Part shown: piece after piece, positions 35,747 to 64,000 of the stretch
Numbering within the stretch: position 1 is the stretch's first letter
How the letters are laid out: each line of letters starts with the position of its first letter
Assembly: GCF_000027125.1 (NCBI RefSeq)
Contig: NC_017626.1
Reading direction: 5' to 3' (one strand)
Source: Escherichia coli 042
GTDB lineage: Bacteria > Pseudomonadota > Gammaproteobacteria > Enterobacterales > Enterobacteriaceae
Length of the DNA stretch: 64,000 bases
Notes under the pieces: generated by a model
The model's input: the letters and a program-made list of their open reading frames with translations, nothing else
What the model was told of the DNA's origin: nothing
Database searches by the model: none
Translations under genes and position numbers: made by a program

Positions 35747-35912
35747 CTTTTTAGTAAAACAAAGTCTACTAAAGACTATCAAGGCCGCACCTCACAAGGG
35801 TTGCGGCCTTTTTCATGTCTAGCAGAGTCTACTGAGAATTGCTAGAAGCTACGCATTATGGGACCCTTATATGGACCCACCGACTGGGTCCAATAATTTG
35901 AGGGTCCAATAC

Positions 35913-37142
35913 ATGGCAAGGCAGACTAAAAAACTCACAGACACTGAAATCAAAAACACCAAACCAGCAGACAAAGAGATCAATCTCTTCGATGGTGATG
36001 GGCTACTGCTACGAATCGCTCCTTCATCAAAAGGAGGGAAGAAGAACTGGTATCTCAGATATCCAGTGCCAGTAACCAAGAAGCGCACCAAGATGAGCTT
36101 GGGTACCTACCCTCACCTCTCATTAGCAAAGGCAAGAGCTTTGCGTGATGAATACCTGTCGTTACTTGCTAATGGTGTTGACCCTCAAGTCCACATCACT
36201 GAAAAAACTAATGCTCTGAAAGATGCCACGGAGCACACGCTACAAGCAGTTTCTCGAAAGTGGTTAGATGAGAAAATTAAGACTTCTGGCATCTCTCTAG
36301 ACCATGCAGAAGATATCTGGCGCAGCCTCGAAAAAAACATCTTTTCAACTCTGGGTGATGTTCCTATCAAAGAGATCCGCCCCAAAATGCTCAAGCAGCA
36401 TCTTGACCCAATTGAGCAGCGCGGTGTTCTCGAAACTCTACGTCGTATAATTTCCAGACTGAATGAAATCTTTCGCTATGCTGCCACGGAAGAGCTTATA
36501 GAGTTCAATCCTGCCGACAATCTCGCTCAGCGTTTCAGTAAACCTAAGAAGCAAAACATGCCTGCCCTTCCACCTGATGAGCTACCACGCTTCATGGTTG
36601 CTTTATCTAACGCATCTATACGGTTAGAAACCCGTATGCTGATCGAGTGGCAATTGTTGACGTGGGTAAGGCCCGGTGAAGCCGTTCGGGCAAGATGGTG
36701 TGATATTGATGAAGAGAGCAGATTTTGGAATATCCCTTCAGAATTCATGAAAATGAAACGCCCACATAAGGTTCCATTGAGTAAAGAAGCTCTCCGCATT
36801 TTAGAAAACATGCGCCCTATCAGTGGTCATAGAGAATGGGTTTTCCCCAGCATCAAAGCTCCCCTCAGTCATATGCATGAACAAACAGCTAATGCAGCCA
36901 TAATTCGTATGGGGTTTGGCGGAGAGCTTGTTGCTCATGGTATGAGATCTATTGCAAGGACAGCAGCCGAAGAATACGGTAAGTTTAGAACGGAGGTGCT
37001 TGAATCCGCTCTGGCTCATACTAAAAAAGATGAAATAATAGCCGCGTATAACCGTTCGGAATACCTAGTTGAAAGAGAAGAACTAATGAAATGGTGGGGG
37101 GATTATGTCAGCAGCAAAAAATATAAGATGATGGCAGCATAA
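35913..37142 (+). CDS. Site-specific tyrosine integrase (P4/IntA-like)
   Basis: Translation MARQTKKLTDTEIKNTKPADKEINLFDGDGLLLRIAP... typical of the P4 integrase N-terminus; C-terminal catalytic region (HGMRSIART...); SD gaggg before the ATG at 35913. Confidence 0.88.
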   Translation: MARQTKKLTDTEIKNTKPADKEINLFDGDGLLLRIAPSSKGGKKNWYLRYPVPVTKKRTKMSLGTYPHLSLAKARALRDEYLSLLANGVDPQVHITEKTNALKDATEHTLQAVSRKWLDEKIKTSGISLDHAEDIWRSLEKNIFSTLGDVPIKEIRPKMLKQHLDPIEQRGVLETLRRIISRLNEIFRYAATEELIEFNPADNLAQRFSKPKKQNMPALPPDELPRFMVALSNASIRLETRMLIEWQLLTWVRPGEAVRARWCDIDEESRFWNIPSEFMKMKRPHKVPLSKEALRILENMRPISGHREWVFPSIKAPLSHMHEQTANAAIIRMGFGGELVAHGMRSIARTAAEEYGKFRTEVLESALAHTKKDEIIAAYNRSEYLVEREELMKWWGDYVSSKKYKMMAA

Positions 37143-37187
37143 ATAAATTTTAATCATATAATTATGACACAGCATAAGGTGAAAGTA

Positions 37188-62247: not shown

Positions 62248-62271
62248 AAAGCCCACAGATGTGGGCTTTTT
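62248..62271 (+). terminator. Plus-strand rho-independent terminator with no upstream plus-strand ORF
   Basis: Hairpin aaagcccacagatgtgggcttt followed by ttttt on the plus strand; on the minus strand the hairpin is not followed by a T-run. Confidence 0.55.
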
Positions 62272-62280
62272 CGTTGATGG

Positions 62281-64000
62281 TTAGAACGACCAGTTCACAC
62301 CAGCTACCGCGTTCCACGGGGATTCCACACCGGCACCATGGCTATACCCCACCCCGAGATGCCCGCTTAATGAACTGCTGAATGAGGCTTTAATACCTGC
62401 CTGGTATATTCCACGTCTGCCCGACAAATCATTGACAAAATTACCGTCATTATTCACTTTCACCCGGTTATCATCGACAAATTCTTTGCGCACAGCCGCC
62501 TTCAGCCACGGCTCAACTTCCATACCGTTCCCCAGACGCATGTTGTAACTCAGCGTTGCGCCCAGTTCACGATATATACTGCGGGTATCGACTGATTTCG
62601 ATTCCATGCCATTGGATAAATGATATTCGGGGTTATCAGCGGTGAACCCCGTTAACGATGCATACGGCGTCAGGTTCCAGTTACCATCGGTAAATCGCAT
62701 CCCGGTTTCAATGTGACCGCCCAGCCCGTTGCTGCGATAACTGCCGTTGGCGGCTCCACCGCTGCTCATTTTACCGGCTACGTTACTTTCAAAACGGTTC
62801 AGCTTCACGATACCGTCCAGATAGAAACCACTTTCATGTTCCCAACTGGCATAGCCGCCCAGAGAATAACTGCCCACACTGCCATGTCCTCCGCGATCAA
62901 AACCGATATGTGAATGGGAATAACCCATAAAAGCGCCCAGCGTGGCAATTCCTTCAGGAATATCATTACGGCTGTCGATCCCCACGGTCATTCCGGTCAG
63001 CGTCTGCTCAAACCCGGCACCCGCATCGGTGGTGACATTATTACGGGTGTTATACGTCGCCCCCCAGACATTATTGTTGTGTGGACTCGCTTTCATTATG
63101 TTCAACCGCTCGCGAATACTGTTTAGCTCAGCATCAAATACCAACGGTAATGTTGCTGCCATATTGAGTACGGCTGCCGTAGAAGGCGTGATGCGTTTCT
63201 CCGGGACGGGTGTCGGCGTTGGATCGGGAGTCGGGTCTGGTTTCGGATCCGGTTTTGGGTCTGGTTTTGGATCCGGTTTCGGATTTGGGTTGGGGTCCGG
63301 GTTGGGTTTGACATCATTGGTCAGGTTCCAGTTGCTGTTGCCGTCGCTTTTCAGGACATACTCATAGGTCCCAAGATCAACGAAACCGCCGGTATTACCC
63401 AGCGTAAACGAAGCATCCCCTCCCCCTGTTTTCACCAGCGTCATCGCGTCGTCAGACTGAGGGCTGACGCCGGTATCCTGAACAAAGATTTTAAAATTAC
63501 CAGTGGCGTTGTTGTTGACGACCAGTTGATCGCCCCGGGAGCCTGCAACGTTGGTATGCAGGTAGAAATTACCGCTGCCGGAAAGTTCACTGGTGGTCAG
63601 CGTATTGTAGATACCGTTAGTTGTGGCAGGCGCTGCTGTTTGTGCTGATAAATAAACATCACCGTCGTTGAGAAGCAAACTGTTTACTCTATATTCGCAG
63701 TTGCTGGTGCCTGCACAGGAATTATTGCTGTTAAGCCAGACACTGCCCCGGCTGGCAGCCGTCAGGTCGGCAAGCGTCGTATCGACGCCATTTCCGATAG
63801 TTAATGTCGCGCTATCGGTAATCCGGACCACCCCTTCAAGTTTAACTGGCGTAACATTATCCCGTGGCGTCATTAACGACAGGCTTCCTGTCGCGCCACT
63901 GACCGATGCATCCGCCAGCGTACCTGCGTAGACGATTGCCGTCCCGCCAGCGATCAGTAGATCTTCTGCCCGGGCCAGAGCCTGAAACTCATCTTTTGAC
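62281..64000 (-). CDS. Autotransporter (type Va) adhesin-like protein, C-terminal part; N-terminus beyond the window
   Basis: Frame open to position 64000; Pro-rich linker PNPDPNPNPKPDPKPDPKPDP; C-terminal beta-barrel domain ending ...AGVNWSF (aromatic terminal residue). Confidence 0.8.
   Translation of the reverse strand, partial: SKDEFQALARAEDLLIAGGTAIVYAGTLADASVSGATGSLSLMTPRDNVTPVKLEGVVRITDSATLTIGNGVDTTLADLTAASRGSVWLNSNNSCAGTSNCEYRVNSLLLNDGDVYLSAQTAAPATTNGIYNTLTTSELSGSGNFYLHTNVAGSRGDQLVVNNNATGNFKIFVQDTGVSPQSDDAMTLVKTGGGDASFTLGNTGGFVDLGTYEYVLKSDGNSNWNLTNDVKPNPDPNPNPKPDPKPDPKPDPKPDPTPDPTPTPVPEKRITPSTAAVLNMAATLPLVFDAELNSIRERLNIMKASPHNNNVWGATYNTRNNVTTDAGAGFEQTLTGMTVGIDSRNDIPEGIATLGAFMGYSHSHIGFDRGGHGSVGSYSLGGYASWEHESGFYLDGIVKLNRFESNVAGKMSSGGAANGSYRSNGLGGHIETGMRFTDGNWNLTPYASLTGFTADNPEYHLSNGMESKSVDTRSIYRELGATLSYNMRLGNGMEVEPWLKAAVRKEFVDDNRVKVNNDGNFVNDLSGRRGIYQAGIKASFSSSLSGHLGVGYSHGAGVESPWNAVAGVNWSF

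Follow-up and report, generated by a model that had tools for sequence, protein, structure and literature searches.

We analysed a stretch of 64,000 nucleotides (nt) from Escherichia coli 042 (contig NC_017626.1 of assembly GCF_000027125.1; hereafter the window), in which the transfer-messenger RNA (tmRNA) gene ssrA is followed by a genomic island (Table 1). The initial annotation had described K-12-like synteny up to ssrA, downstream DNA other than CP4-57, a P4-type integrase and restriction-modification (RM), mobilisation, H-NS-like, Rep-like and envelope genes, and in all these respects it proved correct. The island lies within the same smpB-ssrA ... ypjA frame as in K-12. A tblastn search against K-12 CP4-57 returned homologues for two of the 29 island proteins, the integrase (49% identity) and an AlpA-like helix-turn-helix (HTH) protein (31%), and no counterpart for the other 27. 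The RM genes encode a Type II methyltransferase beside a nuclease with a PD-(D/E)XK fold match, the mobilisation genes a small protein resembling TraD and a relaxase of the MobQ family, the H-NS-like genes a full-length protein and a truncated one of 79 amino acids (aa), and the envelope genes lipoproteins and a DotA/TraY membrane protein; the Rep-like protein resembles one annotated RepL, with weak Pfam matches (HTH_36, DnaD_N).

Limits of the island and its attachment sites

GC content is ~0.50 up to ssrA, 0.32–0.46 across 36–62 kb and 0.51 in the final 2 kb; a block of foreign composition thus lies directly 3′ of ssrA and, as the profile suggests, ends within the window. An empty site was sought with a synthetic query in which the 3′ region of ssrA was joined to the sequence near 62 kb, and ssrA was found directly adjoining ypjA in many E. 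coli genomes. The empty site of PCN033 aligns with window positions 33847-35746 and 62118-64000, with a 3-nt overlap (CCA). Since this alignment covers both sides of the insertion, the whole island lies inside the window: it spans positions 35747-62117 (26,371 bp; GC 37.6% against ~51% in the flanks) and ends beside ypjA, 1.9 kb before the window does. With the point of insertion marked by a slash, the empty site reads ...CGCCAGCTCCACCA/ATCATGATTGG, the left junction ...CGCCAGCTCCACCA/CTTTTTAGT and the right junction ...ACAGGGACGCCAGCCA/ATCATGATTGG. The initial annotation had placed the right attachment repeat outside the window and put the island at more than 28 kb, and on both counts it has to be revised. 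The frame in K-12 is built likewise, with ssrA, CP4-57 (22 kb), psaA (a 14-nt ssrA remnant) and ypjA in succession. Alignment of E. coli genomes at ssrA, which the initial annotation had proposed, showed that the content of the locus varies between lineages, with empty sites, CP4-57 and the present island all seen.

The left attachment site is the end of ssrA itself, and the gene is left intact by the insertion. The right one is a remnant, CGCCAGCCA, 4 nt shorter in its core than the CGCCAGCCCACCA of S1-KEN-05-A, GTEN_97 and K-12 CP4-57, so that only CGCCAGC..CCA is left of it. The GTEN_97 and S1-KEN-05-A relatives have an attR of ACAGGGACGCCAGCCCACCA followed by the flank, and that of CP4-57 in K-12, CTCCGCCAGCCCACCA, adjoins the same flank, its core CCGCCAGCCCACCA being identical to that of the island relatives; these repeats match the ssrA end at 13 of 14 positions. 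The 4-nt deletion is common to the window and AHB1 only and, given its presence in AHB1, it is real and inherited. The initial annotation had also proposed a search for a direct repeat of the ssrA 3′ end. The repeat exists and was found via the empty site, but a 23-nt probe of the ssrA 3′ end, allowing up to 3 mismatches, returned only ssrA itself, because so little of attR is left. A general repeat search did not place attR among the top repeat families, and the exact right junction of the window was reproduced in no genome. Both junctions and the unchanged ssrA would be explained if crossover took place in the terminal CCACCA.

Directly 3′ of ssrA the island carries a hairpin followed by a T-run, which to judge from its structure is a probable replacement terminator for ssrA; a terminator consensus scan with a loop limit of 8 nt did not call this hairpin, whose loop is ~11 nt. 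In empty sites ssrA precedes the bidirectional ypjA terminator region, so that insertion swaps the downstream context of ssrA. An Rfam scan over the island at E <= 0.1 matched tmRNA alone.

Table 1. Features of the island and its borders in window coordinates, with amino acid identity to homologues in IE3 and in the serU island of strain MS8320.
Feature	Coordinates	Strand	Evidence or remark	IE3	serU island
ssrA (tmRNA gene)	35384-35746	+	ARAGORN; Rfam RF00023, 292.8 bits		
attL core, last 14 nt of ssrA	35733-35746	+	CGCCAGCTCCACCA; junction mapped against PCN033 empty site		
Hairpin and T-run, probable ssrA terminator	35782-35813	+	AAGGCCGCA..TGCGGCCTTTTT; read from sequence		
P4-type tyrosine integrase, IntA (ssrA-specific) clade, 409 aa	35913-37142	+	NCBIfam PRK09692, 442 bits vs cutoff 434	32%	31%
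DUF3644 protein, PADLOC candidate defence system PDC-S19	37164-38501	+	PDLC04952, E = 2.6e-68; RefSeq DUF3644		
Type II DNA methyltransferase	38836-39801	-	PADLOC MTase_II, E = 1.5e-102		
PD-(D/E)XK-fold nuclease, 229 aa	39870-40559	+	Divergent from methyltransferase gene		
Small TraD-like relaxosome accessory protein, 103 aa, not coupling ATPase	41205-41516	-	RefSeq name; homologues	56%	57%
83-nt repeat with palindrome TGATTGTTCAAAACAATCA	41621-41704		Further copies 56949-57032, 57090-57131		
Candidate oriT: GC-rich block, three hairpins	42155-42290	+	~60-200 nt upstream of mobQ		
MobQ-family relaxase, 502 aa	42352-43860	+	NCBIfam NF041496, 259.7 bits vs cutoff 200	61%	61%
Variable slot B: three open reading frames (176, 86, 216 aa)	44098-46030		Relatives carry GmrSD or ApeA		
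Lipoprotein (RefSeq 'SEN1982 family') and four small conserved unknowns, backbone	46047-48974		Homologues in serU island and IE3	48% (lipoprotein)	49% (lipoprotein)
hyp149				26%	36%
hyp156				no match	69%
Full-length H-NS paralogue, 135 aa, Hfp/H-NSB type	49098-49505	+	NCBIfam H-NS 1e-53, below equivalog cutoff	no match	75% (Hfp-type protein)
182-aa open reading frame	49518-50066				
416-aa protein, RefSeq 'TraW family', DotA/TraY partner	50325-51575	-		no match	80%
Orphan DotA/TraY-family membrane protein, 886 aa	51949-54609	-	TIGR04346, E = 2.3e-125	no match	87%
Two backbone unknowns, 174 and 254 aa (hyp174, hyp254)	54626-56235	-		no match; no match	58%; 32%
Non-coding repeat-rich region, 1.46 kb, upstream of RepL-like gene	56236-57692		Iteron-like copies, palindromes, CTATAAC cluster		
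RepL-like / winged-HTH protein, 232 aa (hyp232)	57693-58391	+	IE3 homologue annotated RepL	42%	no match
Truncated H-NS, H-NST type, 79 aa	58423-58662	-	Matches N-terminal half of H-NS/StpA	78%	80%
AlpA-like HTH protein (HTH72, 72 aa), predicted recombination directionality factor	60281-60499	-	PHROG 66 and 2790, 3e-11	57%	43%
DUF6387 gene (867 bp) and 111-aa open reading frame beside attR	60655-61853	-	RefSeq annotation	39% (DUF6387)	41% (DUF6387)
attR remnant	62112-62120	+	CGCCAGCCA in place of the CGCCAGCCCACCA of relatives and CP4-57		
3′ part of ypjA/ehaD autotransporter gene, core chromosome	62281-64000	-	Right flank		

An IntA-type integration module on a ROD21-like backbone

The 29 open reading frames (ORFs) of the island were translated with the RefSeq annotation of AHB1, whose locus is 99.2% identical, as a guide. 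The integrase gene starts 167 nt after ssrA, and its product is 93% identical to the integrase of the GTEN_97 ssrA island and 49% identical to K-12 IntA, against 31–32% for the integrases of the islands whose backbone it otherwise shares (Table 1). At the other end, HTH72 matches two PHROG families labelled 'excisionase and transcriptional regulator' and is 31% identical to K-12 AlpA; by its homology it is probably the recombination directionality factor (RDF, or excisionase). The island thus resembles CP4-57 in occupying the same ssrA-ypjA slot, in the attR core of its relatives, in having a related integrase and in encoding an AlpA-type regulator, and there the resemblance ends: CP4-57, a P4-like element, lacks a relaxase and has no further gene in common with the island.

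The kinship of the remaining genes lies elsewhere. We compared the backbone with IE3, an EARL island at tRNA-Asn in the enteropathogenic E. coli strain E2348/69, and with the island beside tRNA-Ser (serU) in strain MS8320 (locus L005), and found homologues for 13 proteins in the serU island and nine in IE3. The serU island, of the type present in the uropathogenic strains CFT073 and 536, has the closest backbone and also the oriT-like block described below; it differs in its site and in the slot between int and traD, where it has pilV and type IV pilin genes and the ssrA island has PDC-S19 and the RM genes. DotA/TraY and its 416-aa partner are the backbone proteins that the ssrA and serU lineages conserve best, and neither occurs in IE3. 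The 174-aa and 254-aa backbone proteins gave no family match.

EARL islands, among them ROD21 of Salmonella Enteritidis and IE3, are bounded by a P4-like integrase gene on one side and, on the opposite side, by an RDF gene accompanied by a ~843-bp gene of unknown function (PMC6035254; PMC7074111). They encode TraD, a MobA/MobL (MOBQ) relaxase and H-NS together with an oppositely oriented truncated H-NS (PMC6035254), although H-NS homologues, full-length and/or truncated, are frequent rather than universal among them; they measure 21–30 kb at a GC content of 35.7–39.2%, and type IV pilin or pilus-related genes occur in 52 of 56 (PMC6035254; PMC7074111). By definition, EARL islands are inserted at Asn-tRNA genes, are flanked by 24–37-bp repeats and share an integrase of the SEN1970 type (PMC6035254; PMC7074111). 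The island at ssrA agrees with them in its size and GC content, in TraD, the MOBQ relaxase and the H-NS/H-NST pair, the H-NST gene again lying opposite to the full-length one, and in an RDF gene with a ~850-bp gene beside attR; the DUF6387 gene corresponds to the EARL '843-bp gene of unknown function'. It departs from them in its ssrA site, its 9–13-nt repeat, the low identity of its integrase to that of IE3 and, unlike most EARL islands, the lack of any pilV or pilin homologue. Because the integrase is nearer to IntA than to the integrases of these relatives, the element is, on sequence comparison, a mosaic: its ssrA integration module is of the IntA type, and its backbone of the ROD21/serU type. 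The searchable EARL literature, in which module exchange is already a theme, makes no mention of an ssrA version of ROD21-like islands.

Some 110 bp of the GC-rich block upstream of mobQ are nearly invariant among the ssrA, serU and Asn-tRNA islands, while the relaxases themselves are only 61% identical; as single-stranded DNA the block folds with z = -3.9. The block was also found with MobQ in six other genera, namely Hafnia, Prodigiosinella, Citrobacter, Enterobacter, Kluyvera and, at the flank edge, Yersinia. We therefore regard the block as a candidate oriT, its function being predicted from conservation and hairpins. Other non-coding elements are shared as well. The palindrome of the 83-nt repeat (consensus TGATTGTTyAArACAATCA) has five matches where 0.03 are expected, and it is kept in the serU island and IE3. 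Two of the 83-nt copies fall in the repeat-rich region upstream of the RepL-like gene and the third near traD. This region, partly conserved in the serU island and IE3, also contains iteron-like GTCAGGAAnACTGACT units, four or five in number, at 56403-56481 and clustered CTATAAC repeats at 57393-57483, and may represent a replication origin or a set of operators.

Nature of the element and alternative readings

We consider it highly probable that the region is a complete 26,371-bp integrative and mobilizable element (IME), in which an IntA-type ssrA module sits on a ROD21-like backbone. It has an integrase, mapped att sites and a relaxase of its own, and it lacks a complete type IV secretion system (T4SS). 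On this interpretation, the integrase and RDF would recombine attL with attR to give a circle, whose attP junction would read ...ACAGGGACGCCAGC[CCA]CTTTTTAGTAAAAC... and would leave behind a restored attB of ...CAGCTCCACCAATCATGATTGG...; the relaxase would nick the conserved hairpin block upstream of mobQ; and the DNA would leave via the T4SS of a co-resident conjugative plasmid, a helper being needed because the island has neither T4SS ATPases nor a coupling protein. In the recipient, the integrase would recombine attP with the CCACCA end of ssrA, keeping the tmRNA gene intact. H-NS and H-NST together probably adjust how strongly the AT-rich island DNA is silenced, and the slots between the conserved genes would carry exchangeable cargo, here PDC-S19 and the RM pair. 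Among relatives, ROD21, IE3 and ICEKp258.2 excise, and ROD21 has been transferred by conjugation, reported as plasmid-dependent.

Several observations weigh against parts of this interpretation. The boundaries, gene content, homologies and distribution of the element are established here, but excision, a circular form, the oriT function, mobilisation and transfer, defence and the role of H-NS are inferred from sequence rather than observed. The RSF1010-type nic motif TAAGTGCGCCCT is absent from the island, which leaves conservation and hairpins as the grounds for the oriT assignment. DotA/TraY is only ~21–24% identical to plasmid TraY proteins (IncI1, IncL/M and others), and no helper plasmid can be named. 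PDC-S19 is a candidate and not a validated defence system, and the nuclease is a restriction enzyme by prediction only. Within the available 10-kb flanks, the MobQ backbone or the oriT block appears in only seven of ~27 loci with a close integrase in other species, and the link between integrase lineage and backbone is accordingly not an exclusive one. Finally, the deletion in the attR core takes most of the presumed crossover segment, and excision of this particular copy may suffer.

The last point leads to the most serious alternative, in which the copy in 042 is an immobilised, decaying remnant fixed by the 4-nt attR deletion. While the loss of most of the CCACCA crossover segment, which AHB1 shares, is what such a remnant would display when set beside S1-KEN-05-A, GTEN_97 and CP4-57, the island has kept each of its 29 ORFs intact, and 18 of these, the integrase and the RDF among them, are 100% identical to those of S1-KEN-05-A, whose attR is intact; any immobilisation must therefore be recent. 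Altered cores are, moreover, sometimes accepted by tyrosine recombinases, if only at low frequency. We regard immobilisation as quite possible without favouring it.

Far less can be said for two readings that change the class of the element, both of which we rejected on gene content. A self-transmissible integrative and conjugative element (ICE) with type IVB (IncI/Dot-Icm-like) secretion is suggested by DotA/TraY (TIGR04346, 2e-125) and by a neighbour labelled TraW family. However, scans with NCBIfam and other profiles found no VirB4/TraU-type ATPase, coupling protein or other part of a type IVB system among the 29 proteins, 'TraD' is a 103-aa accessory protein, and the 416-aa 'TraW' has no hidden Markov model (HMM) behind its label, with no match in Pfam, NCBIfam or PHROGs. 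For these reasons we speak of an IME and not of an ICE; with an element of only 26 kb, and with EARL islands regarded by their authors as mobilizable and not self-conjugative, self-transmission is very improbable. Slighter still is the chance that the region is a P4-like satellite or cryptic prophage, a divergent allele of CP4-57: kinship in the integrase, the AlpA-like HTH protein and the attR core would fit, but the 27 proteins without a CP4-57 homologue would not, PHROGs matched only the excisionase among the ten proteins scanned, and the genes present instead specify a relaxase, a TraD-like protein and the ROD21/serU backbone.

As an integration site the tmRNA gene is a classic hotspot that has seen heavy use; varying occupants there are ordinary strain-to-strain variation, and IMEs with defence cargo at this site have already been catalogued. 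As E. coli hotspot #9, the tmRNA locus has been reported to accommodate prophages, P4-like satellites, IMEs and transposons, whose defence cargo varies (Hochhauser 2023, PMC10121019), an example being the 29.6-kb 'IME__GInt' island with Mokosh in the enterotoxigenic strain H10407 (PMC10121019). That survey sorted the occupants by element type and gives no account of this backbone or of its kinship with ROD21 and the serU island (PMC10121019). Current understanding is thus unchanged. For annotation, the limits and att sites of the island are now fixed, and it is identified as a mobilizable element that carries restriction genes along with candidate anti-phage genes. The ROD21/serU backbone is now seen with at least three integration modules (Asn-tRNA, serU and ssrA), which lends support to module exchange as the way in which such islands evolve and to their role as swappable platforms for defence genes in Enterobacterales.

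Distribution, cargo and the DotA/TraY pair

The DNA spanning integrase and attL is present in 65 of 5,426 complete E. coli genomes (megablast). The DotA/TraY gene occurs at an identity of at least 95% in 77 genomes and at ~80% in 113 more, with a serU island at the one locus examined. By the first two counts, some 65–77 of the 5,426 genomes carry the island. A near-identical island was found in AHB1 only, where the ORFs are 99–100% identical. On contigs from one genome per species, integrases 83–89% identical occur in ~25 Enterobacterales species, and a further tier at ~50% is IntA-like; most of the 79 integrase loci in other species, from both tiers, lie ~165–185 nt downstream of ssrA. The 83–89% lineage was seen beside ssrA in Yersinia, Hafnia, Dickeya, Citrobacter, Enterobacter, Kluyvera and others. 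Serratia sp. AKBS12 (loci L071 and L077) has the right part of the island, with a DotA/TraY 99% identical to that of the window, and then a second, IntA-like integrase (49%). To judge by this order of genes, the genome appears to hold a tandem array of two elements at ssrA, and the 99% identity of DotA/TraY in a genome labelled Serratia suggests either very recent transfer or contamination.

The cargo differs between relatives. Their int-traD slot may hold a Dcm-type methyltransferase and an ATPase and the slot after mobQ GmrSD or ApeA, the right end varies as well, and their other cargo is annotated as reverse transcriptase, TIR-domain, PIN-domain and cyclase proteins. Going by these comparisons, the island behaves as a platform with exchangeable defence cargo, in line with what has been described for mobile elements at E. 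coli hotspots (Hochhauser 2023, PMC10121019). In the window the methyltransferase also matches NCBIfam models for adenine-specific methyltransferases, below their cutoffs. The divergently encoded 229-aa protein has no direct Pfam family match. Its family comprises over 1,300 unnamed proteins; five of the 34 members sampled matched PF11645, a PD-(D/E)XK family, and residues D95, Q109 and K111 are invariant. The confident AlphaFold 2 model of the 229-aa protein (pLDDT 91) is closest to PD-(D/E)XK endonucleases, with I-Ssp6803I as the top Foldseek match (E = 1e-4, probability 1.0), followed by NhoI, EcoRV and Hjc. On the modelled fold and the position of its gene, the protein is probably the restriction endonuclease cognate to the methyltransferase, and a Type II RM pair is a reasonable reading of the two genes.

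The three ORFs of slot B and the 182-aa ORF downstream gave no match in NCBIfam, PADLOC or PHROGs. All four lie in slots that hold GmrSD or ApeA in relatives and were found here and in AHB1 only among the E. coli loci examined, and the 216-aa product (hyp216) has an 87% match in a Citrobacter amalonaticus locus (L012). These four could be uncharacterised defence or counter-defence cargo.

DotA/TraY and the 416-aa protein invite a comparison with SGI1-type mobilizable islands, which encode substitutes for subunits of the helper T4SS; SGI1 in this way escapes entry exclusion with IncC plasmids. Like the ssrA island, SGI1 is an IME with one or few mating-pore genes and no complete T4SS. The two are not homologous, and the likeness is one of analogy only. 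By extension, the ssrA islands might be a third ROD21-like lineage across Enterobacterales, after the Asn-tRNA EARL and serU islands, arisen by a swap to an IntA-type module, in which DotA/TraY and its 416-aa partner would replace or modify the TraY of an IncI-like helper conjugation system of type IVB, perhaps as a means of avoiding entry exclusion. Taken as a whole, this proposal is speculative, and we think it unlikely.

The sole match to the 416-aa protein in the plasmid collection was CP088875.1 (393 kb). This sequence, labelled a plasmid and classed as non-mobilizable, has the 416-aa gene together with an 87%-identical DotA/TraY of the serU type, and may be a misassigned chromosomal fragment rather than a plasmid.

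Two further observations concern the right flank. AHB1 (locus L001, 38525 onward) and S1-KEN-05-A (locus L003, ~32080 onward) have only ~150 nt to the right of attR in common with the window (62272-64000) and then continue with glaH (csiD), the ypjA-to-ygaQ segment of the window and K-12 being missing from both. Within ypjA, a 12-nt tandem repeat (63214-63315) encodes a proline-rich PDPK/PDPT linker between passenger and barrel, an ordinary autotransporter feature.

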